Shown: positions 4,489-36,382, numbered from the stretch's first letter. The stretch is DNA of 64,000 nucleotides from an uncultured Candidatus Saccharibacteria bacterium (GCA_964416765.1 CAYQEU010000001.1:1675-65674); one strand, 5' to 3'. Translations and numbers: made by a program. Notes: generated by a model not told the origin, from the sequence alone.

Positions 4489-7400
4489 ATGAATATCAGC
4501 ATAGGAAAAGTCAGGCCAGGCTTTGGTACCAGAAAAACCTTCACTTTAGTGGGCGTTTTTCTGTTTTGTGCTTTGCTGGTATTCAATGGTTTTTTCCCCT
4601 CCAGCGGTGGAATTAAAAAAGCTCATGCGGCCCCGGTAACGATCACATTTTACTCGGATGATTACTGGCAGGTTCCTGCCGGTGTGACTTCCGTAACTAT
4701 TGATGCATGGGGCGGCGGCGGCGGCGGTAATTCCATCGGCCAAGGCGGTTACGGCGGAGGCGGCGGCGGTTACGCGCATGGTACTGTTAGCGTTACCCCT
4801 GGAAATTACTATGACATTATAGTCGGCCAAGGAGGGGTGGCGGGAGAAAAAAATGGCGGCGCGGGCGGCCCCACATATTTTGGTGGTGGTGACGTGGGTG
4901 CTACTGGCGGCGATGGCGGCCAGAGTGGTATTGGACCCGGAGTGGGGGGCAATATTTTTGCCGGTGATTTTGGGTACTCAGGCGGCCAAGGCGGTTACGG
5001 CGACCAATTCTTTTCCTTGTTAGGCGGCGGCGGTGGCGGTGGTGCTGGATCTTCCGGCGCCGGCAGTACCGGTGACGATGGTATAAATGGAGGTGCTGGA
5101 GGCGCCGGCGGCCCGTCTGAAGGCGGCCAAGGCGGTCACGGCGGCGACAGCAGAAGTGATGGCGAGCCGGGCTACAGCATAGGCGGGGGCGGTGGCGGTA
5201 GCGGAGATGGCTCCTTCCCGGGAGATGGGGCAGCTGGTCAACTTTGGGTTACCTATATTCCTCCTTTAATTTGTACTTCAATCACAAGCGGCTCTGGCAA
5301 CTGGAATAGCGCCAGCACTTGGACCAATTGTGGCGGCGGCACACCCGGCTCTAATGACACCGCGGTTATTGAGGGCACCGCGCAAATCACGGTCACTGCC
5401 AGCACCACGGTAAATAACTTACAGTTTGGTGACAATTCGACACCCGCGACAAACGCGGTGCTTAAAGTTAATAGTGGCCAAACTTTAACAGTTTCCAACA
5501 CCACTACAGTTTTCAGTGCCTCTAACAATAATGTCCAAGCCACCATCCAGGATGGTACCGGTAGCGGGACGGTATCCGGTGTTTATTTGGATATAGGATC
5601 ACCCGTAATTCCTGGTACAGGATCCCACGAAACTAAATTGATATCTTCAATTTCCAATTTTTCTCTGGCGGGAAGCACAACCATGCATGGGTATTCCGGT
5701 GTTTCAAGAGACAACGACCCAACTCTGGAAATACCTTCTGGTACTATGACGACTACCAGCCTAACTACAACTTTATCTGCTTCGTGGGTGACTGCTACTA
5801 TTTCAATGAACACGGGTGCCCAGACGGGAACCCTTAAACTGACCAGTAACCCCGCATGGTCCATAAGCGGTACAGGTACCACCAATCTGAACTTAGCAGG
5901 GACGGGCAACACGGTGGAGTATTCGGGCACAAATGCTTCCATACTCAACACGACTTACAAGAACCTCAAAGTAAGCGGTGCCCTGGGTACGACGGCACAG
6001 ACCGCTACTGTTGCAGGAGCCTTCACTGTTACGGGCAGCGGTAGCATGTCTCCAAGCTCGGGAACCATGACGTTTAACAACGGGGCTTCAATAAATAATT
6101 CCGGTACCCTTAATTTCTATAATCTATCAACTTCGGTATTTTCTTCCGTTAGCTCGAGCGGTAGCTTCGGGGTAGCTTCAGGCGGCACGTTTACCATTGG
6201 GGGAGCGAGCACGTTTACCCCGGCAGCAGGCGATGTTATTACCGGTACCTCTGCTACTATTACCGGAAGCGGCACGGCCAAGGTCACCCGTACCGCGGCG
6301 ACCGCTGATTTTAATACTCAATACAATTTTGGCACTAAGACCCTGACTAACTTAACCGTGGACTACGCGGGCAGCGGGCAATCGTTGAGCAATCTCACAT
6401 ACGGTGGACTAAAAGTGAGCGGATCCATTACGGGCGCCACCGCTACTGCAACTGTGGGCACTAACTTTAATGTTACGGGCACCTTCACGCCCAGCGCCGG
6501 CACGATTACCATGAGCGGCACGAGTTCCATTACGAATTCAGGCACACTTACGTTCATTAACTTAATCATCAATACTTTGGCGTCAGTGACCGGCAACACT
6601 AGCTTTGGTGTTTCAGGCACCTTTACGGAAAATTCTGGGGCCAGTTTCGCCGCGGCTTCAGGCACGCAAACATTTAACAACGGTTCGAGCATAGTAAAAA
6701 ACAGCACCCAGCTGCTTCAGTTTAATAATCTAACGGTGGCGGCATCTGGCACCATAACCGCTAACGTGGACATGAGCATTAATAGCGCCGTAACCGTACT
6801 TTCTTCCGGCACGTGGAATGCCACGGCGGGCACGGTTACCATGATGGATGGGTCATCAATTTCAAACGCGGGAACCCTGTCCTTCCAAAACCTGACCATA
6901 GGGGCAGGGGGGACAACTAATGTCACCGCCAACGCTAGCTACACTGTTAAGGGGGGTTGGACAATAAGTTCGAACGCTACGCTATCCTCCAGCTCCGGTA
7001 CAGTAACCTTAACCGCTTCTGGAACGCCTTTTGTCATGAGTGGCTCATTTTCCCCGTCAGGAACTAATACGGTTAAGTACGCGTCCAGCACGGGCGCTAC
7101 AGTGACCAGCAACATAAGTTACCAAAATCTCGACATTTCTCCCAGCAGCGGAACTCCGACTTTTTCGGTTGGCTTCTCCAATCTTAGCGTGGGGGGTGAT
7201 CTTACTCTAACAGGAACAGTCGCGACAACCTTCAATTTGAATAATATCGCATCTTACCTGGATGTTAACGGAAACGTGAGCATCAACTCTGGGAATACCT
7301 TGGTGGCTCCGCCGAGCTCCGCGATTTTCTATATTGGCGGGAATTATACCAATTCGGGGACATTGAACAACAATGTTGGAACCATTCAGTTTGACGCCGG

Positions 7401-10400
7401 TACTACCGGTAAAACCATAACTACCAATAACCAGTTTTTCAACAATTTAGTTTTCAATAACGCCTCGGGCGGTTGGACTTATACTCCAACCCTGTACATG
7501 TCCGGGACTTTGACTGTTACCGCTGGCACACTGTCCGGTACCGGTAACGTGGAGACCGATGGGGGCAACACCACGGGGAATGGAACAATCAACATAACTG
7601 GCGGAACCTTTTCGCAGTATGCCGGGGGCAGCTTTGGTGGCAATACCAACTGGACCTTTAATGACATCCAGTTCGGGGATGATATTTCCGAAATGCATGC
7701 CACCGGAACCGGAACCATAACAGCCCGCTCTATTAGCTCGCTTTATGAGTGGCACGCCGGCAGCAAGACTTGGATTATTACGGGTACCGGCACTCCGCTT
7801 ACCAACAACGGTACGTTTTTTGGTGAGAATAGCACATTCCAGTTTACAGGCAGCACTGTTACGGTACCGGTGTTCGCATATAATAACCTAACCTTGGGGG
7901 GGAGCGGGACTTACACCATGCCGGCCTCAACCCTTACGCTCACTGGAAACCTGACCGTGACCAACGGGGCGACGGTGACAAAGGGAGCAGGAACTGTAGT
8001 GTTCGGGGGATCCACGCCTCAGACCATAACTGACAACAGTGGTACCAAACAGGACTTAGGGGCTCTTCAAGTCTCCAACACTACGCAGCCGTGGTGCAAC
8101 ATTTCTTCCACAGTATGTAATTCTTCCTGGCTGAACCGACGCAAGATTACTTTTAATAACAGCGCTTCTTCCGCGAACCTTACCAACTTCCCGGTTTTGG
8201 TTCAGCTGACTTCCGCCAACATCGACTACAACAAGACCAAAGCCAACGGCGCGGACCTTCGTTTCGTTGATGCTGATGGCACTACAGCCTTGAGTTATCA
8301 GATTGAAACCTGGAATACATCGGGAACATCCAACATATGGGTGAGGGTACCTCAGGTTAATAACACCACGACCGACTATATCTACATGTACTATAACAAC
8401 ACTGGGGCGGTAGATAGCCAGGCGGCCACCAGTGTGTGGGACTCAAACTTCAAGGGAGTGTGGCATCTCCCGGATGGTGGTACTCTTTCCACTGCGGATT
8501 CCACGAGCAACGCTAATAACGGGACTAATCAGGGAAGTACCATTGCCGCTGCAGGCAAGATTGGTGGGGGAGCGAACTTCATCAATAGCGGCAGCGACCT
8601 CGCGATTTCCAATATCTCCGTTAGCGGGGTTGCTTATACCATCAGCACCTGGTTTAATACTCCTTTTGGTAATGCCGGCAGCTACACTACCTTAACCCGT
8701 GGCGCCGCTGGTGACCACCAGGTCTTAATAGACCCGAGTAATATTCTGGGGGTATTTGATTCCAGCACCGGTTTCTATAGCTCAGGGTTTAATGTCACGT
8801 CTCTTTCCAGCGGCTGGCATCACTTAACCGCGTCAGCTACCGGCAGTACTACAACTTTCTATATCGATGGGGTAAGTGTTGGTTCTTCCTTATTTAAATC
8901 CAATACCAACATTAGTTACTTGGGTAACTGTGGCGTGTGTTCTGGCCAACGGTGGGGTTTGGCTGACGAAATGCGCGTTTCCACCGGCATTGCCCGCGAT
9001 GCTAACTGGGCCAAGGCGGACTACCTTTCCGAAAGCAACCAGATGAATACTTTTGGAAGTGAAGAATCCTCCACTGCGGTCGGGGTTGCATTGGGTTCTT
9101 CCATTAAAGCTACATCGGTAACAGTGGATGCTACTCGAGTTCTCAGCGCCAACGGCTCTAATACCCTAACTCTGGTAGGAAACGGCGCATCGGTGTTCGT
9201 GGTAAATGGCACGTTTGTCCCTTCTACCGGCACGGTTGATTTTAGCTCAGCAAGCACAACAGGAACTACTGTACCGGGCACGACTTTTTATAACCTCACC
9301 TTAAACAAAGCTTCCAATAACTTTACCTCCGGCGGTTCCATGACCGTAGGCGGTACGTTGACCATTAGTGCCGGCACCTTTACCGCACCTTCAGGCACTC
9401 TGACATTGAACGGGGACTTAGTTAATAGTGGCACCTTTACTCACAACAGCGGCACGGTAGTATTCGCCCCGACCAATGCCTCACTAAGTTCCACAATTTC
9501 AGGTAGTTCAAACATCACATTTAACAATGTCAGTGATACAACTCCCGGTTCCAGCATAATTTTCAAAAATGGGAGTACGTTCATTTTCTCCGGCACCCTA
9601 ACCGCCACGGGCACGGCGCAAAACGCGGTTTGGTTGAAGAGCGCTTCCCCAGGATCACAATGGACCGTTACTTTTAGCTCGACCCCTAGCCTTACAAACG
9701 TATCCGTGCAAGACGGTGCTTGTAATGGCGGGTTAACTTTGGCGCAAAACCCTTCCCTGCATAATGAAGGACGCAATGGTTCCTGCTGGGGCTTTATAAT
9801 CTACACTGGCGGCGGCGGTGCTTCTGACGGTGGTTCTGGCAACACCGGCGGCGAATCCGGCGGCGGCGGCGGAAGCGGCGGCGGTACAACCATTTCATTT
9901 ACTTCAAGCGGCTCTTGGACCGCGCCTGAGGGCGTAACTTCTGTTATTGTGGAAGCCTGGGGCGGCGGGGCCGGTGCCGGCAGGGGTACTACCATAGGTG
10001 GTTCTGGCGGCGGCGGCGGAGCGTATTCTAAGAAAAATTCTATCAGTGTAACCGCAGGTACTACATACACCGTAACTGTTGGCACTGGCGGAGCAGGGTC
10101 CACGGGGGGCAATGCCCAGGCGGGCGGTGACTCCTGGTTCTCTACTTCCGGTACTATACTGGCTAAGGGAGGCACGGCTGGAGCAGATAATGGCGGAGCT
10201 GTTGGAACCGGGGGCGCGGCGGGAAGCGGTATTGGTGATGTTAAATTCTCTGGAGCCAACGGAGGGACGGGTTCCAGTATCATAGGCGGAGGCGGTGGTG
10301 GAGGAGGGGGAGCTGGAACCGGCACTAATGGTAATCCAGGGGACGATGGTGTTTCTGGCGGCGGCGGCGGCAAGGGCGGCGCACTAAATGGCGGCGCTGG

Positions 10401-11244
10401 CGGTGATGGTCAATTCGGTAGCACGGGAGGTGCTGGATCAGTCCGCGCCGGCGGCGGCGGTGGTGGACAAGGCGCGGGCAGTAACGGCGGCGCAGGAGCC
10501 CGTGGTGAGATTCGGATAACCTACACAGTCAGTGGCGGCTCGGGCGGAAGCTCAACGAGTGGAAATACAACTACATTTACTTCAACTGGCTCATGGACTG
10601 CGCCAGCAGGCGTAACCTCGGTTACCGTTGAAGCCTGGGGCGCGGGCGGTTCTTCAGCCAGTGGTTCCTCGGGCGGTGCCGGACGGGGCGGTGGCGGAGG
10701 AGGAGCATATTCGTCCGCTACTATTACCGTTACTCCTGGTAACCAGTATACGGTAACGGTTGGTACTGGCGGTGCTGGACGGTCATGCTGTAGTGTTTTG
10801 GGACAAGCTGGGGGAGATTCCTGGTTCGGAACTACCGGCACATTGTTGGCAAAAGGTGGCTCCGGCGGAGACTTTTCCGGTACTGGCGCCTCAGGCGGCG
10901 CTGCGGCAGCCGGTGTAGGAACAATTAAGTTCTCTGGCGGTGCCGGCGGAAACAGCGCTGACAACACAGCGTCCTTTGGTGGCGGTGGCGGTGGCGGAGC
11001 CGGTACAACCGCCAACGGCGGTAACGGCGGCAATTCTTCCGGTGTAAATACCGTAGGAGCTGCGGGAACAGGCGGCTCCCTTAACGGCGGTAATGGCGGA
11101 ATTGGCGGAACCGGGGCCGGTTCAGTAAGAGGCGGCGGCGGCGGAGGGGCAAATGGCGCAACCGACTCTGTTGCTGGCGGTCGTGGTGAAGTTAGGATTA
11201 CCATCAATGCCACCCAAGGCGGCGGCGGTGGGGGATCCCCATAA
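4489..11244 (+). CDS. Giant secreted/surface protein (2251 aa). It has an N-terminal signal/anchor, three copies of an extremely glycine-rich domain, many PATR-like Ser/Thr/Gly beta-strand repeats, and a central DUF2341-like plus LamG/concanavalin-like module.
   Basis: N-terminal hydrophobic segment RKTFTLVGVFLFCALLVF. Gly-rich domain consensus 'W.APAGVTSV.VEAWGGGG...GGGGGAYS...ITVTPG..YTVTVGTGG' occurs at about 4650-5260, 9886-10512 and 10567-11217. The DUF2341-like signature LRFVDADGTTALSYQIETWNTSGTSNIWVRVPQV...IYMYYNN is followed by a lectin-like beta-sandwich region. There are dozens of SGT/TGT-rich roughly 20-aa beta-solenoid repeats. Confidence 0.85.
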   Translation: MNISIGKVRPGFGTRKTFTLVGVFLFCALLVFNGFFPSSGGIKKAHAAPVTITFYSDDYWQVPAGVTSVTIDAWGGGGGGNSIGQGGYGGGGGGYAHGTVSVTPGNYYDIIVGQGGVAGEKNGGAGGPTYFGGGDVGATGGDGGQSGIGPGVGGNIFAGDFGYSGGQGGYGDQFFSLLGGGGGGGAGSSGAGSTGDDGINGGAGGAGGPSEGGQGGHGGDSRSDGEPGYSIGGGGGGSGDGSFPGDGAAGQLWVTYIPPLICTSITSGSGNWNSASTWTNCGGGTPGSNDTAVIEGTAQITVTASTTVNNLQFGDNSTPATNAVLKVNSGQTLTVSNTTTVFSASNNNVQATIQDGTGSGTVSGVYLDIGSPVIPGTGSHETKLISSISNFSLAGSTTMHGYSGVSRDNDPTLEIPSGTMTTTSLTTTLSASWVTATISMNTGAQTGTLKLTSNPAWSISGTGTTNLNLAGTGNTVEYSGTNASILNTTYKNLKVSGALGTTAQTATVAGAFTVTGSGSMSPSSGTMTFNNGASINNSGTLNFYNLSTSVFSSVSSSGSFGVASGGTFTIGGASTFTPAAGDVITGTSATITGSGTAKVTRTAATADFNTQYNFGTKTLTNLTVDYAGSGQSLSNLTYGGLKVSGSITGATATATVGTNFNVTGTFTPSAGTITMSGTSSITNSGTLTFINLIINTLASVTGNTSFGVSGTFTENSGASFAAASGTQTFNNGSSIVKNSTQLLQFNNLTVAASGTITANVDMSINSAVTVLSSGTWNATAGTVTMMDGSSISNAGTLSFQNLTIGAGGTTNVTANASYTVKGGWTISSNATLSSSSGTVTLTASGTPFVMSGSFSPSGTNTVKYASSTGATVTSNISYQNLDISPSSGTPTFSVGFSNLSVGGDLTLTGTVATTFNLNNIASYLDVNGNVSINSGNTLVAPPSSAIFYIGGNYTNSGTLNNNVGTIQFDAGTTGKTITTNNQFFNNLVFNNASGGWTYTPTLYMSGTLTVTAGTLSGTGNVETDGGNTTGNGTINITGGTFSQYAGGSFGGNTNWTFNDIQFGDDISEMHATGTGTITARSISSLYEWHAGSKTWIITGTGTPLTNNGTFFGENSTFQFTGSTVTVPVFAYNNLTLGGSGTYTMPASTLTLTGNLTVTNGATVTKGAGTVVFGGSTPQTITDNSGTKQDLGALQVSNTTQPWCNISSTVCNSSWLNRRKITFNNSASSANLTNFPVLVQLTSANIDYNKTKANGADLRFVDADGTTALSYQIETWNTSGTSNIWVRVPQVNNTTTDYIYMYYNNTGAVDSQAATSVWDSNFKGVWHLPDGGTLSTADSTSNANNGTNQGSTIAAAGKIGGGANFINSGSDLAISNISVSGVAYTISTWFNTPFGNAGSYTTLTRGAAGDHQVLIDPSNILGVFDSSTGFYSSGFNVTSLSSGWHHLTASATGSTTTFYIDGVSVGSSLFKSNTNISYLGNCGVCSGQRWGLADEMRVSTGIARDANWAKADYLSESNQMNTFGSEESSTAVGVALGSSIKATSVTVDATRVLSANGSNTLTLVGNGASVFVVNGTFVPSTGTVDFSSASTTGTTVPGTTFYNLTLNKASNNFTSGGSMTVGGTLTISAGTFTAPSGTLTLNGDLVNSGTFTHNSGTVVFAPTNASLSSTISGSSNITFNNVSDTTPGSSIIFKNGSTFIFSGTLTATGTAQNAVWLKSASPGSQWTVTFSSTPSLTNVSVQDGACNGGLTLAQNPSLHNEGRNGSCWGFIIYTGGGGASDGGSGNTGGESGGGGGSGGGTTISFTSSGSWTAPEGVTSVIVEAWGGGAGAGRGTTIGGSGGGGGAYSKKNSISVTAGTTYTVTVGTGGAGSTGGNAQAGGDSWFSTSGTILAKGGTAGADNGGAVGTGGAAGSGIGDVKFSGANGGTGSSIIGGGGGGGGGAGTGTNGNPGDDGVSGGGGGKGGALNGGAGGDGQFGSTGGAGSVRAGGGGGGQGAGSNGGAGARGEIRITYTVSGGSGGSSTSGNTTTFTSTGSWTAPAGVTSVTVEAWGAGGSSASGSSGGAGRGGGGGGAYSSATITVTPGNQYTVTVGTGGAGRSCCSVLGQAGGDSWFGTTGTLLAKGGSGGDFSGTGASGGAAAAGVGTIKFSGGAGGNSADNTASFGGGGGGGAGTTANGGNGGNSSGVNTVGAAGTGGSLNGGNGGIGGTGAGSVRGGGGGGANGATDSVAGGRGEVRITINATQGGGGGGSP
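9886..11217 (+). repeat. Intragenic tandem duplication (two copies of about 630 nt, at 9886-10512 and 10567-11217) encoding the glycine-rich domain. A third, more diverged copy lies at about 4650-5260.
   Basis: DNA- and protein-level similarity is visible, e.g. TSSGSWTAPEGVTSVIVEAWGGGAG versus TSTGSWTAPAGVTSVTVEAWGAGGS, and both copies end ...RGE(I/V)RIT. Confidence 0.8.
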
Positions 11245-16940: not shown

Positions 16941-16969
16941 AAAAAAACCACCTAATCGGTGGTTTTTTT
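16941..16969. terminator. Bidirectional intrinsic terminator AAAAAAACCACC-TAATC-GGTGGTTTTTTT.
   Basis: Perfect stem flanked by an A-run and a T-run. It serves the plus-strand gene ending at 16920 and the minus-strand sodC, whose stop codon (TAG, 16952-16954) lies in the loop. Confidence 0.8.
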
Positions 16970-17467
16970 GATAATTCCGCAGGCGATGCGCGGACCTCCG
17001 CTTATGCCGGAGCCGTGTTCACCGCCTTGGTAAGGGTCGGGATTTCCGTGAATCATGAGGGAAGTACCTTCCCCGGCGAGGATGGAAGCGGCGCCATCGG
17101 AAAGGGTTACACGCGTGGTAATGGCTTCCAGGGTTCCCTTACCCTCTGAGCCGATTTCTATATTGGGTAAGTCACCAGCGTGGAAGGGATGGTTAACGTC
17201 GGGGTCGGAGTTTCCTGCCGGACCTGGATCAAAATGGCCGCCAGCGCATTTAAAGCTGTCGCCGCAATCCGCCTTTTCATGGATGTGGACGGCATGCATG
17301 CCTGGCTTCAACTTTTCCGGGTCGCCTTCCAATTGCAGGATAAGTTTAACCAGAGTTTGGGTACCGAATTGGTACTCCGTGAATACGGCATTCCCTTTGA
17401 TCCCGTCGCCTTCCAGCAATGCTTCGGCTTTCATGATTTCTTTAGGTTCGGATGAAAATAGTTCCAT
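16952..17467 (-). CDS. sodC: Cu/Zn superoxide dismutase (SodC family), apparently cytoplasmic with no signal peptide.
   Basis: HAVHIHE, GGHFDP, HPFHAGDLPN, LMIHGNPD and GGPRIACGII metal-ligand and fold motifs are present. The start is uncertain: ATGs at 17524, 17467 and 17434 are all in frame, and 17467 leaves a 17-nt gap to the upstream gene. Confidence 0.85.
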   Translation of the reverse strand: MELFSSEPKEIMKAEALLEGDGIKGNAVFTEYQFGTQTLVKLILQLEGDPEKLKPGMHAVHIHEKADCGDSFKCAGGHFDPGPAGNSDPDVNHPFHAGDLPNIEIGSEGKGTLEAITTRVTLSDGAASILAGEGTSLMIHGNPDPYQGGEHGSGISGGPRIACGIIKKTTD

Positions 17468-17484
17468 AGTTTTTGTGATGTTAA

Positions 17485-17985
17485 TTACCAGGCGCAGGAA
17501 GTGGGATCGCTGCACGCCATCCATGCCGTGGTCGGACGGACGGGATCATAAAATAGTTCAGTAGAAGAGGGGAACGTTTCCGGCCCCACGTCGCTTAAAA
17601 TCAATTTATATCTCAGGCCATCGGATTTGTAGTTATAGCCGGACCATCCTGTGGTTACGCCCAACGGGTCGGTGGGTAAGGTGCTCAAGTAAGTTGGTGT
17701 CAGGCCAGGAATGTATGCGTTGACACCGCTTGTAGTATGTCCACCACCGTTGGCGGAAGTGCCCCACCATTGGCTGCTGGTGCTTGGATATCCGTAGTTG
17801 GCGGTGTAGTAATTTTCCAACGCGGTTTTTAGTTGGGTTAAGTCTGCCTTGCGCTTAGTATCTCGTGAGGTTTTTCTTGCGCTGGCCAGTGAGGCAACCA
17901 TAATGCTGGCCAGTAACCCGATGATGCCAATTACCACCATCAACTCAATCAAACTAAAACCCTTTTGTCTCTTAAGTGTTATCAT
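17485..17985 (-). CDS. Type IV pilin-like protein (prepilin-type N-terminal cleavage/methylation domain).
   Basis: N-terminus MITLKRQKGFSLIELMVVIGIIGLLASI with a class III signal (G|FSLIE). The C-terminal region is globular and Cys-containing. Confidence 0.85.
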   Translation of the reverse strand: MITLKRQKGFSLIELMVVIGIIGLLASIMVASLASARKTSRDTKRKADLTQLKTALENYYTANYGYPSTSSQWWGTSANGGGHTTSGVNAYIPGLTPTYLSTLPTDPLGVTTGWSGYNYKSDGLRYKLILSDVGPETFPSSTELFYDPVRPTTAWMACSDPTSCAW

Positions 17986-18266
17986 GGGTTTTTCTCCAGC
18001 TTCGGGGGCTCACCGGGCGTATTGGTCATGTGGTAGCCAGCCGGGGGAGTGTAGTTAGCGGGGTTAGTCGTGGTTTTGGTGTATTCACGAATGAAATAAC
18101 CTAGTGCAGCCAGTGACGCAATGACAAATATGATAGCACCTGCCATTTTTAGGGTCGGATGCGCTGATTCAACTCGTTTAGGCGCTGGAGCTTGTTTGTT
18201 ATTTTGGTTTCCGGGGAAGAAACCACTGAAATCAACACCTTCTTCACTTTTGGGGTTTTGGGCCAT
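17982..18266 (-). CDS. Small membrane protein (94 aa) with an N-terminal EEGVDFSGFF motif. It pairs with the pilin gene (ATGA overlap) and is a paralog of 27583..27867.
   Basis: Single TM segment AGAIIFVIASLAALGYFI, and a 4-nt overlap with the downstream pilin start. Confidence 0.6.
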   Translation of the reverse strand: MAQNPKSEEGVDFSGFFPGNQNNKQAPAPKRVESAHPTLKMAGAIIFVIASLAALGYFIREYTKTTTNPANYTPPAGYHMTNTPGEPPKLEKNP

Positions 18267-23792: not shown

Positions 23793-24662
23793 TTATTTGG
23801 CTGATAAATCGGTAAAGGCGGAAACTTCGTTGCCCATGCGTTCGTTTAACGGCCCTACTGCCTGGACTAGATATTGGACCAGGGCGTAGAGCTTATTCAT
23901 ATCTTCAGTGGTATAGACAACGCCGGGTGCATATACGTATAGGTGCTGGCCGACAAACTCCAAAGTGTAATTTTTCCAACCGTCCAGGAGGTTGGCCATA
24001 AACTCAGGGTTGAATATCTGGTAAAGCTCAATCTCCAAACCTTTCTGGACGTATATTTCAAAGTGCTCATTAAAATCGCCTTCCAATTCCAGTTTTTCCC
24101 GGTTGCCGGCCAGATTAGGCAAATCGCCATCGGAGAAGAAGCCGGGCCTGACCCGCAAATATATAGAGGGAAAAACCCTAGGGAATTCCAGCCGGACTAT
24201 GGTACTTGAATAGGTGTGCTGTTGTTGTTCCTGCATGGCAGAGGCGTAATCTTTGACCGTAAAACTATAGTTAAAAAGAGCCAGAGGGAAACTTTGCAGT
24301 TGGCCCTCAACCAAGTCAAAGCCTGTCCGCCCCTCGCCTAAACTAAATAACCCGCCATCAAGTGCCGTGGGGAAGCCAGTCTTTTCGAAGCTAAACTTGT
24401 GCGCCCGCGCGAATTGTTCATAGAACCTATCGCGGATTTCCGCTTTGATGTAAGAGTATAGAATAACCCCAACCAGGACAGGGAATAGAAACAGGACCAT
24501 GCCCCAGGTGCCATAGCCGCGGAACATAAAGTACAGGACCAGCGATTCATAAATGATTAACACGGCCGCGCCAATCAGGAGCGCGGGCATGTATTCCTGC
24601 CGGATGAAATTCTCCGTTGTGGAGACAACATTTTCAATGGGTCCGATTTTTTTGGTGTCCAT
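23793..24662 (-). CDS. Hypothetical membrane protein (two N-terminal TM segments plus a soluble domain); last gene of the pilin-headed operon.
   Basis: Likely start is MDTKKIGP at 24662, 4 nt after the upstream stop. TM segments ALLIGAAVLIIYESLVLYFMF and GMVLFLFPVLVGVILYSYI. Confidence 0.55.
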   Translation of the reverse strand: MDTKKIGPIENVVSTTENFIRQEYMPALLIGAAVLIIYESLVLYFMFRGYGTWGMVLFLFPVLVGVILYSYIKAEIRDRFYEQFARAHKFSFEKTGFPTALDGGLFSLGEGRTGFDLVEGQLQSFPLALFNYSFTVKDYASAMQEQQQHTYSSTIVRLEFPRVFPSIYLRVRPGFFSDGDLPNLAGNREKLELEGDFNEHFEIYVQKGLEIELYQIFNPEFMANLLDGWKNYTLEFVGQHLYVYAPGVVYTTEDMNKLYALVQYLVQAVGPLNERMGNEVSAFTDLSAK

Positions 24663-24666
24663 AAGG

Positions 24667-25176
24667 CTAAGAAAGTTGTTCAGGTTCAGGCCGAACGGCG
24701 CTATATATTGCCCAGGCGCAGGCAATAAGGATGGCGGCGACCCCCAGAAATCGTATGGCCGCGGCGACCCCAATTGTATGATGCAGCATGCCGGCCCGGA
24801 TTAACAACCAGTTCCAATCGTGCGTCGAACTGTCGCCAAACAGCAGGGGCAGCTGCATTTTTACCGCGTCGCCCGCGTAAACGGAAACGTTTAGCAGGTT
24901 TTCGCCGACCCAAAACAGGACTAAAGCGGCGGAAAAGTACTGTTCCTGGTAAGCAAAGTAGATTACAAAAATGGCGGGAAGCAATACCTGGGTGAGGCTT
25001 CCGCCCAAGGCGTACATAAAATCACCAAACGGCATGAAAATAATGTGGCCGCCTTCGTGAATCAACAGGTTCGCGTTATCAATAAAGTGCCAGGCTCCCG
25101 GGTTTAAGCAGCAACCAATGAAATAAATGGAAGCAATTATGGCGATAGCAAGCTTGAAGTAGTTATGGTTGGTCAT
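24667..25176 (-). CDS. Polytopic membrane protein with an HExxH motif (putative membrane-embedded zinc metalloprotease, DUF3267-like).
   Basis: LIHEGGHIIFMPFG lies within or next to a TM segment. There are 4 to 5 hydrophobic helices, and a 4-nt ATGA overlap with the upstream gene. Confidence 0.5.
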   Translation of the reverse strand: MTNHNYFKLAIAIIASIYFIGCCLNPGAWHFIDNANLLIHEGGHIIFMPFGDFMYALGGSLTQVLLPAIFVIYFAYQEQYFSAALVLFWVGENLLNVSVYAGDAVKMQLPLLFGDSSTHDWNWLLIRAGMLHHTIGVAAAIRFLGVAAILIACAWAIYSAVRPEPEQLS

Positions 25177-25676
25177 AACGGGTTGTCGCGGAGCTTTAAT
25201 AGGTAACCAGCATAAGCCAGAATAGGTTGGATCAGCAAAGTAACTATTAATCCTACAGCGGCTATCGGCAACTGTTCCTTGCCCAGAGTTACAAAAACTA
25301 TTCCGGTTACAATTATGGAATCGCCGTGGTCTATGATTGGGACATACTTTCCCCGAGGAACGCCAAACCGCCTTTTGATGAAAGCTCCGCAGGCATGACC
25401 CAGGTATACCGTTAGCCCTTTAAGCGCGCCCAAAGCCGGGCTGGTTATGAATGATTCTATAAGCATGCCGGAAAGAATTGCGACCGGCAAACCAACCCAG
25501 GTAGTAGAAACTCCCAGCAGTCGGTACCCGTCTCCCAGAGTGTAGCCGAGGTCAAGCGGCGCGTCGTATTTAAGGAGTGCGGGACGGCGTAATTTGAGCA
25601 GGTACCATAAATTCAGCGCAATATTAATGCACCAACAGGGAATTGTATACAGGAGTACATGGTATAGCTCCGTCAT
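25173..25676 (-). CDS. CDP-archaeol synthase-like (CarS/DUF46 family) integral membrane cytidylyltransferase homolog.
   Basis: DLGYTLGDGYRLLGVSTTWVGLPVAILSG resembles the CarS 'D.G..L.DG.RLLGD.KTWRG' signature, and about five TM helices fit a CarS-family protein. The start codon overlaps the upstream stop by 1 nt. Confidence 0.5.
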   Translation of the reverse strand: MTELYHVLLYTIPCWCINIALNLWYLLKLRRPALLKYDAPLDLGYTLGDGYRLLGVSTTWVGLPVAILSGMLIESFITSPALGALKGLTVYLGHACGAFIKRRFGVPRGKYVPIIDHGDSIIVTGIVFVTLGKEQLPIAAVGLIVTLLIQPILAYAGYLLKLRDNPL

Positions 25677-27088
25677 TAAGACTTGATTTCCAGGTCGCTG
25701 ATGAAAAAGTTTTGCAGACCGGAACTCAGGAAATATTGTTCGACGACATTAACTTCGCGGGGCCAGCATTGCGGAAAGGCAAGCTCGACTTGGTATCGGT
25801 ACAAGCCATGGTCGGACCCGAGTTCCTTTATGGAGTTGAACATTTCCTTTACGGTTGCCGTCTGGAACTGCTCAAAGGTGGAAAGTACAAAGTTAAACCG
25901 GGTGCGGCTGCCATGGGTCATGCAAGTTTCGCCGGGTACGGTGACCGGTTGGAAGTTATCAAGCAAACCCTGCTCATTCAGAATTTGTCCCACAGTAGTG
26001 GGCTGACCAGGAAGGTAGGAATATATGGTCATGTTGCCAATTATTTTAACAGGTTTGTAAGCTGGGTCGTGCGGGTCATGGAACATTCCGACCAGTGCGC
26101 CTTCATCACCAATTGCCTGATGACGGTAGCTGGCCAGCGATAAATCAGCTGAGAGGGGATAATAAAACATCAAGGCGATGAAAATTCCACACAATAGGGC
26201 CGGCCGGTTTACAGCCTTGCCCCAGCTTACGTAGACCAAAGCCATCATGGCAAAAGCGTAGAGGCAGATTAGGTAAAGCTGGAAGGAAAAATCGGAAAAG
26301 CCGGAATACATTCCAAGCCAGTAGCAAACTACAACAAGCGCGGCGTAAAACAAGGCCCAGAGTAGGATAGCGTTCTTGAGCCAGGGTTTGCCACGAAAAA
26401 TCAGGTAAACGAATAGCGGTATACTGACTGCCGCTTCGTGGGTAAATGGCCCGCCATCAACTATGTTTTTTACAATACTGAAAGTAACAATAGCGAAAAT
26501 GAGCCCGTAAAGACGTGGGAATTTTTCCTGCTGCCACGTCGCGAGGAACTGCCAGGCTAGCAGATAGAGGATTGCTATTATTAAGATAATTCCAACCCAG
26601 GCCACCCAGTCGGGGACCAGCCCTACGAAAGCGTAACCAGTATCAATATTTTCCTGGCTGGCTTTGTGAGTGAAAGAAAGAATTGTGCCGGAAACAACTT
26701 TGAAAGTGTGATTATGGAGCAACTTGGTGCTTGAAAGCTCCCCGTGGTTTTCAGCAATTACGTAGTCCTGGTAGCTAAAACCGTAGTGGTGATAGAACCA
26801 GACAAAACTCCCAATATTGAGCAGAAAAGACAACAACACGGCCCCGACTAAGACGTTTTTCCAGCGGGCCTTAATTTTGGGCAGCGCTATTTTAAGATTT
26901 ACCGCCAGCAGAATAAGTAAAAGGTAGGCGAGGAATAGCACTACCTTGGTGAAGCTTCGCCCACCGGCGAAAATATTTATGAGTGAATGGAGGAAAAGGA
27001 AAACGTAGTCTGACCAGACGATAAGTCCGGCTAGTATTATGACGGCGGCAATGCCGCCCCAGCGCTTAAAGAGAGAGCCCAAAGCCAT
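25676..27088 (-). CDS. Large polytopic membrane protein (470 aa, about 10 TM segments plus a C-terminal soluble domain of about 140 aa), possibly a GT-C-like or ligase-like enzyme; function unknown.
   Basis: Hydrophobicity pattern. Translationally coupled to the pilin gene (23-nt overlap). Confidence 0.6.
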   Translation of the reverse strand: MALGSLFKRWGGIAAVIILAGLIVWSDYVFLFLHSLINIFAGGRSFTKVVLFLAYLLLILLAVNLKIALPKIKARWKNVLVGAVLLSFLLNIGSFVWFYHHYGFSYQDYVIAENHGELSSTKLLHNHTFKVVSGTILSFTHKASQENIDTGYAFVGLVPDWVAWVGIILIIAILYLLAWQFLATWQQEKFPRLYGLIFAIVTFSIVKNIVDGGPFTHEAAVSIPLFVYLIFRGKPWLKNAILLWALFYAALVVVCYWLGMYSGFSDFSFQLYLICLYAFAMMALVYVSWGKAVNRPALLCGIFIALMFYYPLSADLSLASYRHQAIGDEGALVGMFHDPHDPAYKPVKIIGNMTIYSYLPGQPTTVGQILNEQGLLDNFQPVTVPGETCMTHGSRTRFNFVLSTFEQFQTATVKEMFNSIKELGSDHGLYRYQVELAFPQCWPREVNVVEQYFLSSGLQNFFISDLEIKS

Positions 27089-27596
27089 GATTTTCTCCCC
27101 ATTTGGCTTGGCCAGACTCCAGATGCTCTGCCCAAAGTTGGTACATGTAGTTTAGTTCGGTAGTTCCCAAGCCGCACCCTATTCTGTTGCACCAATCGGA
27201 CATAGCACTTGGGGGTACGTATCCATATACATAGTAGTAATTGTCGTCGCCAGCGCAATTGATGCCACAAGGGTCCTTAGAGATATTTTTGGCATATGGC
27301 GATAGGTCAGTGGCCAAAAATTTCCACTGGTCAGAATAATCATAAATAGTCGAACAAGTGCCCGGGTTTTCTGCCTTACAGTCGTACTTTCCGGCATACG
27401 GAGCATGGTCTTTATCTATAGTGTATGCCTGGATGGCGGTGTCAATTTGTTTAATATCTGCTTTACGTTTGGCGTCACGAGCCAGTTTCCTTGCGGTACT
27501 GACTGATGTCAACACGATGCTGGCCAACAGTCCAATAATGGCAATCACAACGAGCAGTTCGATTAAAGTAAAACCAGCTTGTCTATTTTTGCGCAT
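27066..27596 (-). CDS. Type IV pilin-like protein (prepilin-type N-terminal domain), Cys-rich C-terminal domain.
   Basis: MRKNRQAGFTLIELLVVIAIIGLLASI N-terminus, then several Cys residues. Confidence 0.85.
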   Translation of the reverse strand: MRKNRQAGFTLIELLVVIAIIGLLASIVLTSVSTARKLARDAKRKADIKQIDTAIQAYTIDKDHAPYAGKYDCKAENPGTCSTIYDYSDQWKFLATDLSPYAKNISKDPCGINCAGDDNYYYVYGYVPPSAMSDWCNRIGCGLGTTELNYMYQLWAEHLESGQAKWGENHGFGLSL

Positions 27597-27867
27597 TGGT
27601 ATTTAGGTTTACATTTTTTACTACCCCATGAATGTTTATCTTAGTGGTGGTTTTTTTGGGGGCAGGAGGGGTAGGACGACTCACATACAAAATTATAATC
27701 TGGACGATAGTCAAAACCGCCAGGACGATGGCAAGAATCAGGATTCTTCGGGGAATGCGCTTGATTCGCGATGGCGGTGTCATAGGGATTTGGGGTGTGG
27801 TTGGTTGCTCTACTTGGAAGTGGCTAAAGTCTAAGCCCTCTTCTTCTTGAGGTTGTTCCAAAGGCAT
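27583..27867 (-). CDS. Small membrane protein (94 aa) with an EEGLDFSHF motif; paralog of 17982..18266, overlapping the pilin start by 14 nt.
   Basis: MPLEQPQEEEGLDFSHFQ... and TM segment ILILAIVLAVLTIVQIIILYV. Confidence 0.6.
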   Translation of the reverse strand: MPLEQPQEEEGLDFSHFQVEQPTTPQIPMTPPSRIKRIPRRILILAIVLAVLTIVQIIILYVSRPTPPAPKKTTTKINIHGVVKNVNLNTNAQK

Positions 27868-27968
27868 GTGCTTATTTTACCATAGTTTAATGCCTTTTGC
27901 CTGTAATTTGGCCAATATAGTGCTATTATTATGTTATGGAAATAGGAACCCCCACAACTAAGAGAAGA

Positions 27969-28553
27969 ATGTCTGAGAGAGGGTTTACCCTTATTGAATT
28001 GCTAATGGTCATAGCCATCATAGGCTTGCTGGCTTCCATTACTTTAACCAGCGTGACCGCGGTACGGGACAAAGCCCGAGACACCAGACGAGTGACCGAC
28101 GTGAAGCAGCTAGCGGGTGCCGTAGAACTTTATCGACTGGCCAATGGCACGTATCCAGTGGCCGCTGTTCCGACACTATCCATACCGGGAGTTTCCCCGA
28201 CGTACGTTAGTTCTATTCCCGCGGCTCCAGTGCCGCCGGCCCGGAACTGTACCTCTTCCCAAAACCAATATTTGTACCAATCTGACGGAACCAATTATGG
28301 AATCCAGTTTTGCATCGGGGGAAATGTGGGAAGTATCGGATCGGGTGTGGGGGTTATGTCAGACAAAGGAGCAGGTTTGCGTTATGACGTAAACGGCGAT
28401 GGGGTTGTAGACAATAATGACCCAAATTATATTGCACAATACGTTGTGCTTTTAGTAAACAGTTGCCCGCTATACCTATGTGATATCAGCGGCGATGGCG
28501 TAGTTACCGCACAGGACGCCGCGCTCTTGGCACAGATTATTGCGGGATCCTAA
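27969..28553 (+). CDS. Type IV pilin-like protein with two C-terminal dockerin-like calcium-binding repeats.
   Basis: MSERG|FTLIELLMVIAIIGLLASI, where the in-frame ATG at 27936 is an alternative start. C-terminal DVNGDGVVDNNDPNYIAQYV and DISGDGVVTAQDAALLAQII match the dockerin repeat pattern D.NGDG.V...D. Confidence 0.8.
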   Translation: MSERGFTLIELLMVIAIIGLLASITLTSVTAVRDKARDTRRVTDVKQLAGAVELYRLANGTYPVAAVPTLSIPGVSPTYVSSIPAAPVPPARNCTSSQNQYLYQSDGTNYGIQFCIGGNVGSIGSGVGVMSDKGAGLRYDVNGDGVVDNNDPNYIAQYVVLLVNSCPLYLCDISGDGVVTAQDAALLAQIIAGS

Positions 28554-28601: not shown

Positions 28602-28676
28602 TGGTAGCGCTACGGGGAATCGAACCCCGATTTGATGGATGAAAACCATCTGTCCTAACCATTAGACGATAGCGCC
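28602..28676 (-). tRNA. tRNA-Glu (anticodon UUC), CCA encoded.
   Basis: Hand-folded cloverleaf: acceptor GGCGCTA/TAGCGCT with a G-U at 1:72, D-arm GTCT-AATGGTTA-GGAC, anticodon stem GATGG/CCATC with loop TTTTCAT, T-arm CGGGG-TTCGATT-CCCCG. Confidence 0.85.
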
Positions 28677-33814: not shown

Positions 33815-36382
33815 ATGACAAGTAAATACTTCAAGCACGTCAGCCGTGTCCTGCTGGTTGCAGCGGTTGTTTTTTCGTGTTCAGGGGTTGTTGCCCCGCA
33901 GAGCAGCCATGCTGAGGACTTATTGCCGCGCGTTGTGGTGCGCGACCAGGCTATCCCAACACCACAGTACTACAACACTCCCAACGTGCCTCCGGGACAG
34001 AACGGGGGATCGGTTTATAAAACCCTGATCGCCGCTGACGGCACTATTTACTTGGCTGGAAATTTCGCGTTCGTCTCCGGACAAGACCGCCACAACCTGG
34101 CTGCCTTGTCGGCTGACGGCACTCTTTTGAGCTGGAACCCCAACGCGGATGGCGGAGTGTACACCATGGCCATGGACGGTAGTACTATATATATCGGCGG
34201 CGACTTTTCTCATATCGGCACCACAGCCAAAAACATGATCGCCGCTATCTCTACCAATGGGCAGTTAACTTCCTGGGCTCCGGCCCTCCCGGAAGGATAC
34301 GCTGTCGCTGGTATAGTGGTGGGAGCCAACTCGGTTTATGTCATGACTTCGCCGGGGCCGGATTATTACGGCGACCCAAATTCAGCGGTTGAGTCAGTAT
34401 TTGCTTTCGATAAAACATCGGGGGCCAAACAGTGGTCGGTAACTACCGACGGCTTTGCCATTAACGGAGCGTTAAAGGACAGCACGCTGTATGTGTCCGG
34501 AATATTCACCAAACTTGGCGGACAAGACCGCTCCGGTTTGGGGGCGATTAACGTCAGTAGTGGTCAGGTGACCTCCTGGAACCCAAACCCCAGCAACGCC
34601 CACCCAGAGTATTCGTATAATCTCGTGCAGGCGCTGACTCTTTCGGGAAACACTTTGTACGTGGGAGGAAGCTTCTCTTCCATTGCCAACCAATCCCGTT
34701 CTTACATTGCCTCGTTCGACGCCAGTACCGGCAACCTTACAAACTGGAACCCACAAGTGAGCTTTGGTTACGTTAATGAATCACCATCCATAATGTCTAT
34801 GGCCGTTGATGCTAACGGCAAGCTATATGTTGGCGGCAGCTTTGGTGATGACAACCATTCTTCTTTCTATAACTTATTTATTCTTGACCAGAACGGCATG
34901 GAATATTACTGGCCTATCGACATGGAAGCGAACGCGGATAACGGCTATTACGCCCCAGCGCTCGCCAACGTCGCGATTAGCGGCCATTACATGTATGCCA
35001 GTTCATATAATGACTTCGCCCGCTATGACCTGAACAGCCCCGTGCCTATGACCACAGTTAAGCCGGTATATCCTGGGCCTATTCCGCCTCCTGTCGTGCT
35101 GCCTCCGAACGTCCACGCGGGACAATTGCTAAAATTCAAGAGCAACAACGCGGTTTATCTAGTAGAACCGGAAGGGCTGTACCCGTTCCGCAACTACTAC
35201 TCCTTCCAGCTATACCAAGGCGCCAGCAATGAAAAAATCACCAACATAAATAATGTTATTGACCCATACACGGTTACTACGGCATATGGTTACTCTTCTG
35301 CCGATGAATATTTGGGCCAGTATATTCCCGCGGGACAGCCTTATGTGCCCGGCACTTTGGTTAATTCCAAAGGCACGGTATTCCTCATAATGGTAGGGGA
35401 GCAGATCCCGTTCCGGAACAAGGAATCCTTCCTGGGCCTTGGTTATTCCTTTGCCGATGTCATCAACGCCGACTTAACCAACTCAGGACTTACCCAGACT
35501 CCTGGCATATATACGGATAAAGTTCCACACACATGGGGCACATGGTTAAACTATAACGGCACGATTTACTATTCGGATGAAACCGGCATGATCGGTGTTC
35601 CTGACTGGAGCACTTTCCTTTCTAACCACGGTTTGCCGCAAATGATCAAACAAATGAACCAGTACGACCTCGATGTCTACTTCCAGGACCCGAACCAGCC
35701 AGTACTGCGCTACGCTGACCCGCGGGTAGCTTTGTCTCCAAACGACCCGCCGTATGACCCGGCCACTTACCGCGACCAGACCCGGGTTTATGACATCTAC
35801 AATATTCAGTATGCGCTTGAAGATTATTACTATGCGAATAACAGCCAGTACCCAGCCACCCTCAATGATTTAGTACCGGGCTACATTGGCGAACTGCCGG
35901 TGGCTCCAACCCCGGCTGACGGTTCCTGTACCGCCGACCAGAATACCTATAAGTACGTGCGTACGGACTCTTCCAACGTCGCGTTGACATTCTGTCTTGG
36001 TGCCGCGGTTGATAAGTATGTGGCGGGAGTAAATACTGACCACAGCCCTACCGCGGCCGACCACCGCGACATTACCCGCATAAATGATATTTACCAGCTG
36101 GATTCCGCCATTGAAAACTATCGCTATGACCACAGCAATAAGTACCCGAGCGCGTTATCTGACCTGACCCCTGCCTACATAGGGCAACTTCCAGTGGCGC
36201 CAACTCCGGCTGACGGCACTTGCAGCGCGCAACAAAATACCTACGCCTACCAAAAGCTAACCGATACTACCTTTAAGATGACTTTTTGTTTAGGCGGTAG
36301 TTACACTGGATACAGTGCGGGGTTCCGTACCATTGACCAGACGGGCCAAATTGATGGCGGCCCCGTTGGTCCCACTTATTAA
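33815..36382 (+). CDS. Secreted 855-aa protein: an N-terminal delta-60-repeat-type beta-propeller, then middle domains, then two tandem C-terminal pilin-headgroup-like domains.
   Basis: Signal peptide. Propeller repeats GNFAFVSGQDRHNLAALSADGTLLSWNPN, GDFSHIGTTAKNMIAAISTNGQLTSWAP, GIFTKLGGQDRSGLGAINVSSGQVTSWNPN, GSFSSIANQSRSYIASFDASTGNLTNWNPQ. The two C-terminal repeats of about 85 aa (R..D.Y.I..A.E.Y...N..YP..L.DL.P.YIG.LPVAPTPADG.C...QNTY.Y......FCLG) align with the globular domain of the dockerin-pilin at 27969..28553. Confidence 0.8.
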   Translation: MTSKYFKHVSRVLLVAAVVFSCSGVVAPQSSHAEDLLPRVVVRDQAIPTPQYYNTPNVPPGQNGGSVYKTLIAADGTIYLAGNFAFVSGQDRHNLAALSADGTLLSWNPNADGGVYTMAMDGSTIYIGGDFSHIGTTAKNMIAAISTNGQLTSWAPALPEGYAVAGIVVGANSVYVMTSPGPDYYGDPNSAVESVFAFDKTSGAKQWSVTTDGFAINGALKDSTLYVSGIFTKLGGQDRSGLGAINVSSGQVTSWNPNPSNAHPEYSYNLVQALTLSGNTLYVGGSFSSIANQSRSYIASFDASTGNLTNWNPQVSFGYVNESPSIMSMAVDANGKLYVGGSFGDDNHSSFYNLFILDQNGMEYYWPIDMEANADNGYYAPALANVAISGHYMYASSYNDFARYDLNSPVPMTTVKPVYPGPIPPPVVLPPNVHAGQLLKFKSNNAVYLVEPEGLYPFRNYYSFQLYQGASNEKITNINNVIDPYTVTTAYGYSSADEYLGQYIPAGQPYVPGTLVNSKGTVFLIMVGEQIPFRNKESFLGLGYSFADVINADLTNSGLTQTPGIYTDKVPHTWGTWLNYNGTIYYSDETGMIGVPDWSTFLSNHGLPQMIKQMNQYDLDVYFQDPNQPVLRYADPRVALSPNDPPYDPATYRDQTRVYDIYNIQYALEDYYYANNSQYPATLNDLVPGYIGELPVAPTPADGSCTADQNTYKYVRTDSSNVALTFCLGAAVDKYVAGVNTDHSPTAADHRDITRINDIYQLDSAIENYRYDHSNKYPSALSDLTPAYIGQLPVAPTPADGTCSAQQNTYAYQKLTDTTFKMTFCLGGSYTGYSAGFRTIDQTGQIDGGPVGPTY

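Follow-up and report, generated by a model that had tools for sequence, protein, structure and literature searches.

A pilin-associated gene cassette of Patescibacteria pairs a polytopic membrane protein of unmatched fold with a CarS-like partner

Patescibacteria account for much of the diversity of bacteria and live attached to host cells. This attachment depends on type IV pili, and pilin glycosylation in Saccharibacteria was stated to be unexplored in a study of the TM7x pilus (PMC11623550). Here we analyzed a stretch of 64,000 nucleotides (nt), referred to as the window, from an uncultured Candidatus Saccharibacteria bacterium (GCA_964416765.1 CAYQEU010000001.1:1675-65674). Six minus-strand genes in the window, which we call g1 to g6 (Table 1), encode in order a small membrane protein, a type IV prepilin, a polytopic protein of 470 amino acids (aa), a CarS-like protein, a membrane protein with an HEGGH motif and a protein with two transmembrane (TM) helices. 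The first four form the conserved core of a Patescibacteria-wide cassette: a small membrane protein with an acidic-xDFS motif, a dedicated prepilin, g3 and g4. Within it g3 and g4 are the tightest linked unit, tighter than g3 with the pilin, and the dedicated pilin is their frequent but non-obligatory partner. The remaining genes, g5 and g6, are lineage-specific passengers on the same transcript and lie outside the conserved cassette. We place the cassette among the pilin accessory or modification type, built from a membrane protein of new fold and a CarS-like partner. As a tentative reading, held at somewhat below an even chance, we propose that g3 and g4 modify the pilin at the outer face of the membrane from a lipid-linked donor.

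The first-pass annotation of this stretch described the six genes as chained on the minus strand, and their coordinates, overlaps and gap are borne out by the list of open reading frames (ORFs) and by independent gene calls. From g1 to g6, the junctions are overlaps of 14, 23, 1 and 4 nt followed by a gap of 4 nt, with the g4 start overlapping the g3 stop by the single nucleotide. The mechanical ORF of g6 extends back to a TTG at 24773. The same six genes were returned by an independent gene caller on public contigs with identical proteins (Logan SRR11845619, SRR11845633). Chained with overlaps, the genes are almost certainly expressed as one transcript in the window organism. A tight chain of genes on one strand is ordinary in bacteria; what stands above chance is that the order g2-g3-g4 is kept across dozens of divergent genomes. 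Canonical pilus genes had been described as missing nearby, and none of PilB, PilC, PilD, PilT or PilM was found in the whole 64-kb window, an absence that concerns the window and says nothing about the rest of the genome. Profile searches of each protein, the check first proposed for these genes, gave assignments for g2 and g4; g1, g3, g5 and g6 had no above-threshold match among curated families.

A word-indexed search with g3 returned three homologues only (91%, 43% and 33% identity), and in all three loci the order was small ORF, prepilin, g3 homologue, CarS-like gene. A HMMER profile search expanded the family to 381 representatives, nearly all full length and 102 of them at E<=1e-30. A g3-profile scan that took one genome from each GTDB species yielded 20 loci. 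Most are labelled as metagenome-assembled genomes of Patescibacteria or the candidate phyla radiation (CPR), including Saccharibacteria, CPR3, Paceibacteria and Nomurabacteria; a few carry generic labels only and one is labelled Gammaproteobacteria. With three further loci (L003, L008 and L060, the last a closed genome, CP064996.1) and the window itself, these make up 24 g3-seeded loci. A CarS-like gene adjoins g3 in all 24, lying immediately 3' of it except in L028, where a second pilin comes between. A prepilin of the g2 type is immediately upstream of g3 in 22 of the 24, the exceptions being L030 and L033, and two or three tandem pilin copies are often found there. The order small protein, prepilin, g3, CarS-like gene recurs in relatives down to ∼24% g3 identity, and the conserved g3-g4 adjacency is often translationally coupled.

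The reverse test, a metagenome scan seeded with g4, gave 22 informative loci. g3 adjoins g4 in 19 of these, convergently in two of the 19, and its adjacency in L050 is uncertain. In L043 and L044, trmD and rpoB have only the CarS-like gene between them, at a site that in L031 holds three pilins, g3 and g4; it looks as if the pilins and g3 were lost and g4 retained. Taking all informative loci together, about three quarters have a g2-type pilin directly upstream of g3. g3 resembles a pilin accessory gene in being adjacent to a dedicated pilin and co-inherited with it in the g3-seeded loci; the pilin is absent in several g4-seeded ones. The first-pass annotation had made conservation around pilins the test of its proposal, and this conservation holds in the g3-seeded set and breaks down in several g3-g4 pairs that lack a pilin. 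The cassette is present in some Patescibacteria only, as represented by 138 g4 clusters and the 381 g3 representatives. Pilin-less g3-g4 pairs are flanked by a recurrent N-anchored protein of ∼140 aa ending in ...D(I/V)xxxY, and also by a Cys-rich secreted protein of ∼226 aa; both may be alternative partners or clients of g3-g4.

Among all g3 and g4 loci examined, g5 and g6 are found only on contigs identical to the window. In L060, where g4 is 66% identical to that of the window, the CarS-like gene is followed directly by a tRNA synthetase gene, with no g5 or g6. The six genes were initially taken for one pilin-dedicated membrane module. This picture stands for the order small protein, prepilin, g3, g4 and falls for its six-gene extent, since no other locus examined has g5 or g6. 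A single pilin-processing machine that includes g5 and g6 is largely refuted by these neighborhoods and is, in our estimation, highly improbable: the chained, overlapping genes and the presence of an HExxH membrane protein that could in principle process a pilin speak for it, against which no other cassette, that of the closed genome included, has g5 or g6, and g5 homologues occur in unrelated contexts in several phyla.

The HEGGH motif first noticed in g5 proved to be a true feature of its family, with HExxH (H40, E41, G43 and H44) invariant across 30 homologues along with D103 and H119-D120-W121. D103, H119 and D120 are candidate third metal ligands. g5 matched no protease family or structure, and has no Pfam, NCBIfam or PDB match. 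We found 353 family members at 50–68% identity, some from Acidobacteriota and Chloroflexota, in neighborhoods unrelated to pilins or lipids. These ∼170-aa membrane proteins may constitute an undescribed family of intramembrane metalloenzymes. g6 was correctly called a two-TM protein: two N-terminal hydrophobic helices can be read from its sequence, followed by a soluble domain of ∼215 aa and a weak, sub-threshold match to DUF3137 (E 0.0033).

By its signal and profile matches g2 is a type IV prepilin of a dedicated family, in line with its first description. The N-terminus, MRKNRQAG-FTLIELLVV, is a class III signal with a short basic leader, Gly at -1 and Glu at +5. The protein scores 39.8 bits against PF07963 (cut-off 21.2; E 2.6e-10) and 34.3 bits against TIGR02532 (cut-off 16.3). 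It matches the pilins beside g3 in other loci at E 1e-22 to 1e-49, and the other two window pilins more weakly, at E 1e-16 to 1e-18. Alignment of the family revealed a common GFTLIELL signal, an AR..RDA.R helix, conserved Cys pairs and a conserved globular domain, together with a W..L...L.PY...P.DPCG..C block that contains a DPCG motif. The extreme C-terminus is -SF in 20 of 22 relatives; that of the window g2 is GLSL.

g1 has an acidic N-terminus with the residues E-E-G-L-D-F-S, one TM helix and a Pro-rich tail, and no Pfam or NCBIfam family matches it above threshold. Small proteins that combine an (acidic)-x-D-F-S motif with a TM helix lie directly 5' of the pilin in the window and in L003, L008, L014, L015 and L060. 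g1 goes with pilins, in one subclade, rather than with g3-g4, because the window also holds a paralogous two-gene module in which a g1 paralogue precedes a second pilin with neither g3 nor g4. A Cu/Zn superoxide dismutase gene comes after this second pilin, its start region overlapping the pilin end.

On profile scores, g4 belongs to the CarS-like family of Pfam and is a homologue of CTP:lipid-phosphate cytidylyltransferases, as its initial designation as CarS-like implied. It scores 57.8 bits against PF01864 (cut-off 22) and falls below the NCBIfam CarS equivalog NF003114, at 71.5 bits versus a cut-off of 148. Residues 30-165 align with residues 29-172 of Aeropyrum pernix CarS (5GUF) at E 3.4e-9, with FIKRRFG...PIIDHGD matched to FVKRRLG...PLLDQLD. 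K101, R102, R103, D116 and H117 are invariant in 22 relatives; with K101-R-R and D116-H as putative active-site residues, the catalytic core appears to be retained. All of the 120 listed matches from the 138 clusters of the g4 subfamily are single-domain proteins, mostly of ∼167 aa, and none of these 120 carries a fusion to the CarS-like domain. Some records of this subfamily in Patescibacteria are named 'CDP-archaeol synthase'. We consider this label unjustified for g4 because it fails the equivalog score and lacks the context of an ether-lipid pathway: in L001, L003 and L060, the annotated flanks contain neither GGGPS nor DGGGPS nor any other ether-lipid gene. CdsA and CarS share their CTP-transferase superfamily with dolichol and phytol kinases, a kinship touched on by a weak PF01148 co-match. 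The polar site of CarS is cytoplasmic and binds CTP and Mg2+ (PMC9385802), and this solved archaeal homologue leads us to place the g4 active site on the cytoplasmic side.

g3 has no Pfam, NCBIfam or PDB sequence match. An AlphaFold2 model from a 110-sequence alignment (pLDDT 95.8, pTM 0.93) consists of nine TM helices, a long loop (103-159) with a beta-hairpin and a helix, and a C-terminal alpha/beta domain (331-470). About ten TM segments and a soluble C-terminal domain had been predicted at first; the domain is there and the helices number nine in the model. No fold match to the model was found in the PDB, and the C-terminal domain, which is small and ferredoxin-like, gave marginal structural matches only. 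The proposal that the protein has a GT-C or Wzy_C-like topology thus finds no backing in a high-confidence model. The same alignment, with a mean column identity of 21%, shows conservation at F40, A41, G43, R44, S45, H125, H127, K130, D149, G151, F203, K207, D211, G212, G213, P381, C389, C441 and P443, which includes the motifs FAGGRS (40-45), H125-x-H127-x-x-K130, D149-x-G151 and D211-G-G. C389 and C441 are 99% conserved and may form a disulfide. Many family members lack TM1 and start at FAGGRS.

The distribution of basic residues gives g3 a predicted orientation. K+R counts across the family are 4.5, 1.6, 2.0 and 2.4 in loops 2, 4, 6 and 8, compared with 0.9 in loop 1, 0.2 in loop 5 and 0.3 in loop 7, all three of them short; loop 3, of 57 residues, has a K+R of 2.9 versus a D+E of 4.2. 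Because these positive-inside counts put loops 2, 4, 6 and 8 inside, loops 1, 3, 5 and 7 and the C-terminal domain are predicted to be outside, and all of the conserved polar motifs and both cysteines would face outward.

Several known enzyme types were considered for g3 and rejected. GT-C enzymes (TfpW, PglB, ArnT, PMT) and Wzy_C/WaaL-like enzymes (TfpO/PilO, PglL, WaaL) are not indicated by any Pfam family or by a structural match in the PDB. Nor did the Pfam and fold searches indicate an exosortase/archaeosortase, an Lgt/Lnt-type or a PAP2-type enzyme, and an invariant membrane cysteine is missing from the family. A phosphotransferase of the alkaline-phosphatase superfamily (LtaS/EptA/PptA type) does not fit the window g3, which has no sulfatase or phosphodiesterase domain.

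Since no known catalytic fold was matched, g3 could be a non-enzymatic partner of the pilin, a chaperone, docking or assembly factor comparable to the TfpY type, with g4 supplying the local lipid environment. Accessory proteins are known that help in assembly and leave pilins unmodified (PMC11841053), and g1 too looks like an assembly accessory. We nevertheless judge a purely non-enzymatic g3 to be very unlikely. The near-invariant His, Lys, Asp and Arg residues predicted at the outer face suit chemistry better than docking, and such a role does not sit well with the obligate pairing to the enzyme g4, with g3-g4 pairs that lack a pilin, or with the domain fusion found in distant g3 relatives.

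This fusion occurs in three distant members of the g3 family (P0229, P0246 and P0248; ∼880–909 aa), which carry a C-terminal PF01663 domain (E 1e-11 to 1e-21), a phosphodiesterase domain of the alkaline-phosphatase superfamily. They have LESAR, PTFS and GDHG motifs in common, which probably represent the metal ligand, Thr nucleophile and DH ligand typical of the superfamily. In two of the three loci a CarS-like gene of the g4 subfamily comes directly before the fused gene (hmm E 9e-46; 7-nt overlap in L062), and both of these fused genes lie among genes for glycosyltransferases (GT2, GT4), PMT_2, STT3-like and LPG_synthase_TM proteins and an ABC-2 exporter. No CarS-like gene and no pilin lie near the third fused gene. 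Around these fused genes, a protein of ∼820 aa recurs in L062 and L058 (26% identity), and neighbors of ∼820, 518 and 478 aa have no Pfam family; upstream of the fusion in L058 lie a bAvd-like gene (accessory variability determinant of diversity-generating retroelements) and a 351-aa neighbor. In cassettes of the unfused kind, a VTT/DedA gene (PF09335) directly follows g4 in L020, L022, L024-L026, L028 and L039-L041, which form one Paceibacteria-like clade, and a CDP-alcohol phosphatidyltransferase gene is convergent to the cassette in L003 and L035. DedA proteins flip undecaprenyl phosphate (PMC9876793, PMC10127716), and DedA subfamilies differ in function (PMC10127716).

In the reading that we tentatively prefer, g4 would use CTP at the cytoplasmic face to convert a membrane lipid phosphate into a CDP-lipid; alternatively, it might act as a polyprenol kinase, like its dolichol and phytol kinase relatives. 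The lipid-linked donor would then cross to the outer leaflet, a step for which the clade with a gene after g4 could use a DedA-type flippase. There, g3 would move a group from the donor onto the mature domain of the co-encoded pilin, where the conserved -SF C-terminus would be an attractive target. The group itself is likelier to be a phospho-linked head group or a lipid than a conventional glycan. We infer these steps from the g3-g4 adjacency, the dedicated pilin that usually precedes it and the phosphodiesterase fusion, which are observed, and from the g4 catalytic core and g3 orientation, which are predicted. Such a modification would account for the dedicated pilin family, the orientation of g3 and g4, the phosphodiesterase fusion, the link to DedA and the glycan-cluster context.

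A number of points weigh against pilin modification. The modification itself is read from gene context and structure prediction, and the clustering of the conserved g3 residues into one site is putative. Because g3 resembles no known transferase, it might instead be a transporter or a scaffold. No enzyme for loading the lipid with a head group or sugar is conserved in the cassette, the nearby CDP-alcohol phosphatidyltransferase being confined to L003 and L035. About half of the g4-seeded loci lack a prepilin beside g3. Pairs of g3 and g4 with no adjacent prepilin are found in L030, L033, L037, L038 and L052-L055, and g4 persists without g3 and pilins in L043/L044. Since such pairs exist and g4 survives alone, the role of the g3-g4 pair, and that of g4, may extend beyond the pilin.

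One broader role would be in the envelope. g4 could be a CTP-dependent polyprenol kinase or an activator of a carrier lipid, and g3 a transferase or recycler that acts at the outer face on a surface glycopolymer or carrier lipid, with the pilin co-regulated and not a substrate. The pilin-less pairs are consistent with this, as are the kinship of g4 to dolichol and phytol kinases within the CdsA/CarS superfamily and the fused g3 relatives that share, with their CarS-like partner, a cluster of GT2/GT4, ABC-2 exporter, PMT_2 and STT3-like genes. The DedA gene after g4 in one clade, from a family of carrier-lipid flippases (PMC9876793), points the same way. However, no glycosyltransferase or exporter is conserved in the CPR cassette, and the immediately adjacent pilin, from one dedicated family and often translationally coupled (a 23-nt overlap in the window), is not expected of a general envelope module, which we consider unlikely.

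The main rival to pilin modification is lipid salvage, to which we give a minor but appreciable share of our belief. Lipid synthesis is incomplete in CPR bacteria, which probably obtain lipids from their neighbors (10.1101/465690), and a salvage role would fit this auxotrophy. g3 would receive, trim or translocate host phospholipid or archaeal lipid at the outer face, g4 would turn phosphatidic or archaetidic acid into a CDP-lipid for the organism's own head groups, and the pilin would be linked to the pair through host contact only. By homology, g4 would catalyze the universal step that forms CDP-lipids, and a soil Saccharibacterium is predicted to put new head groups on imported phosphatidate via a cytidylyltransferase (PMC6031116). 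The CDP-alcohol phosphatidyltransferase that adjoins the cassette in two loci, the occurrence of g4 without g3 or pilin, and the pilin-less pairs all agree with salvage, and the extracellular phosphodiesterase fused to g3 relatives could strip head groups. On the other hand, salvage leaves unexplained why a dedicated, co-evolving pilin family is present in about three quarters of the loci. The fused g3 relatives lie in clusters for glycan synthesis and export, not in lipid clusters; the cassette is found in some Patescibacteria only, though lipid auxotrophy is general among them; and no acyltransferase or other lipid gene is conserved nearby.

The boldest form of pilin modification would make g3-g4 a two-enzyme system for covalent phospho-lipid attachment outside the cell, phosphatidylating or phospho-modifying a dedicated pilin and thereby defining a new class of protein lipidation. 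g4 would produce a CDP-activated lipid, and g3 would expose or use this lipid at the outer face. We regard this, or any other categorically new system of protein lipidation or lipid handling, as quite unlikely. Were it true, these ultra-small episymbionts would have a lipidated pilus that inserts into host membranes or takes lipid from them, bacteria would be using an archaeal-type lipid-activating enzyme, and g3 would represent a new membrane-enzyme fold.

Other features of the window are listed with the cassette in Table 1. A scan for promoters and terminators found nothing above chance; one weak promoter-like site is present in the intergenic region upstream of g1, and the count of such sites did not exceed the shuffled expectation. 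Divergent from the cassette is a prepilin of 205 aa whose C-terminus carries a type I dockerin domain (PF00404, E 4.7e-8); a tRNA-Glu gene comes after it. A dockerin domain on a pilin is unusual. An 855-aa protein of the window also matches the dockerin-bearing pilin (phmmer E 1.6e-21; the matching region is unmapped), and a minimal cellulosome has been reported for a soil Saccharibacterium (PMC6031116). Two giant plus-strand ORFs probably encode surface proteins; the larger contains DUF2341 together with a glycine-rich domain, and no Pfam family matches the smaller. A giant DUF2341 protein is also encoded near the cassette in L060.

Table 1. Positions of the cassette genes, of other window features and of selected cassette relatives. 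Positions refer to the window unless a locus is named.
Feature	Position	Strand	Description	Source
g1	27583-27867	minus	94 aa, contains EEGLDFS	ORF list
g2	27066-27596	minus	176 aa, type IV prepilin	ORF list; PF07963/TIGR02532
g3	25676-27088	minus	470 aa, polytopic, uncurated family	ORF list
g4	25173-25676	minus	167 aa, CarS-like membrane protein	ORF list; PF01864
g5	24667-25176	minus	169 aa, membrane protein, HEGGH	ORF list
g6	23793-24662	minus	289 aa counted from ATG	ORF list; gene call
Promoter-like site, weak	27914-27942	minus	TTTCCA-17-TATATT, 9/12, in 68-nt divergent intergenic region 5' of g1	
Paralogous two-gene module	17485-18266	minus	94-aa SEEGVDFS + TM protein and 166-aa prepilin; no g3/g4	
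g1 paralogue preceding second window pilin	17982-18266	minus		
Cu/Zn superoxide dismutase	∼16952-17524		after second pilin	
Dockerin-bearing prepilin	27936-28553	plus	205 aa, divergent from g1	PF00404
tRNA-Glu	28602-28676		after dockerin-bearing prepilin	
Protein matching dockerin-bearing pilin	33815-36382		855 aa	phmmer
Giant ORF	75-4370	plus	1431 aa	
Giant ORF	4489-11244	plus	2251 aa	
Lone CarS-like gene	L043 4980-5483		between trmD and rpoB	
Lone CarS-like gene	L044 3412-3915		between trmD and rpoB	
Pilin-less locus with flanking proteins	L030 6466-10015			
Pilin-less locus with flanking proteins	L033 6436-10038			
Pilin-less locus with flanking proteins	L037 2529-3610			
Pilin-less locus with flanking proteins	L054 3762-4919			
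g3-PF01663 fusion + CarS-like gene	L059 2571-5873		glycan-synthesis/export cluster, also GH57	
g3-PF01663 fusion + CarS-like gene	L062 5131-8285		glycan-synthesis/export cluster, also GH57	
bAvd-like gene and 351-aa neighbor	L058 3249-4728		upstream of g3-phosphodiesterase fusion	

The combination of genes had not been recognized as a described system when first annotated, and a limited literature search agreed, returning no description of the cassette, of the g3 family or of the pairing of g3 with a CarS-like gene. Nothing specific was found in the literature on CarS/DUF46 in CPR or on lipid genes in a Patescibacteria genetics paper. The cassette points to unexplored surface chemistry at the host interface, whether pilin modification or lipid acquisition. 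With 381 representatives, no Pfam entry and no solved relative, the g3 family is a clear target for work on structure and function, and the public annotation of g4 in bacteria as 'CDP-archaeol synthase' omits its near-obligate partner. Saccharibacteria can now be manipulated genetically (PMC10633639, PMC11623550).

By analogy, and without membership in their families, the cassette would work most like the tfpO/tfpW accessory genes of Pseudomonas. In P. aeruginosa, tfpO/pilO (with group I pilA) and tfpW (with group IV pilA) encode, as g3 does, a polytopic protein directly 3' of a dedicated pilin. An outward first loop and a large outward C-terminal domain are further points of likeness, given the predicted orientation of g3. 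TfpO targets the C-terminal serine of the pilin, which may be compared with the conserved -SF C-terminus of the g2 family. These Pseudomonas pilin modifiers are encoded right after pilA and use a lipid-carrier donor made in the cytoplasm (10.1101/2020.04.19.049825; PMC11841053), which is then flipped with the help of small flippase partners (10.1101/2020.04.19.049825). In contrast, neither the fold nor the sequence of g3 gives a GT-C or Wzy_C signal, and its partner is a CarS-like cytidylyltransferase homologue, not sugar-pathway enzymes, with no conserved glycosyltransferases. The cassette also differs in its hosts, the Patescibacteria, and in being known from genes and prediction.

A second comparison is with DedA/VTT flippases, the recyclers of undecaprenyl phosphate of the UptA type. 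The PF09335 gene that follows g4 in one clade fits a lipid that crosses the membrane (PMC9876793, PMC10127716), whereas the window cassette and its closer relatives have no such gene. A third comparison is of g4 with archaeal CarS (PF01864; 5GUF): the match is near full length, PxDxG, LLGxxT, KRR and DHxD are kept, and the size and the ∼5 TM helices are the same. Unlike archaeal carS, for which no such pairing is known, g4 is bacterial, scores below the equivalog cut-off and is almost always paired with g3.

Finally, LtaS, EptA and the pilin phosphoform transferase PptA of Neisseria combine a multi-TM anchor with an extracytoplasmic catalytic domain and move a phospho-head group from a membrane lipid onto an extracellular acceptor, which for PptA is pilin. 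The window g3 has no such domain, and its nine-helix TM part is of a different, unmatched fold. Three distant g3 relatives, however, carry the PF01663 domain at the outward C-terminus, and it is from this domain fusion that we draw a functional analogy between g3 and enzymes of the PptA/EptA/LtaS type.

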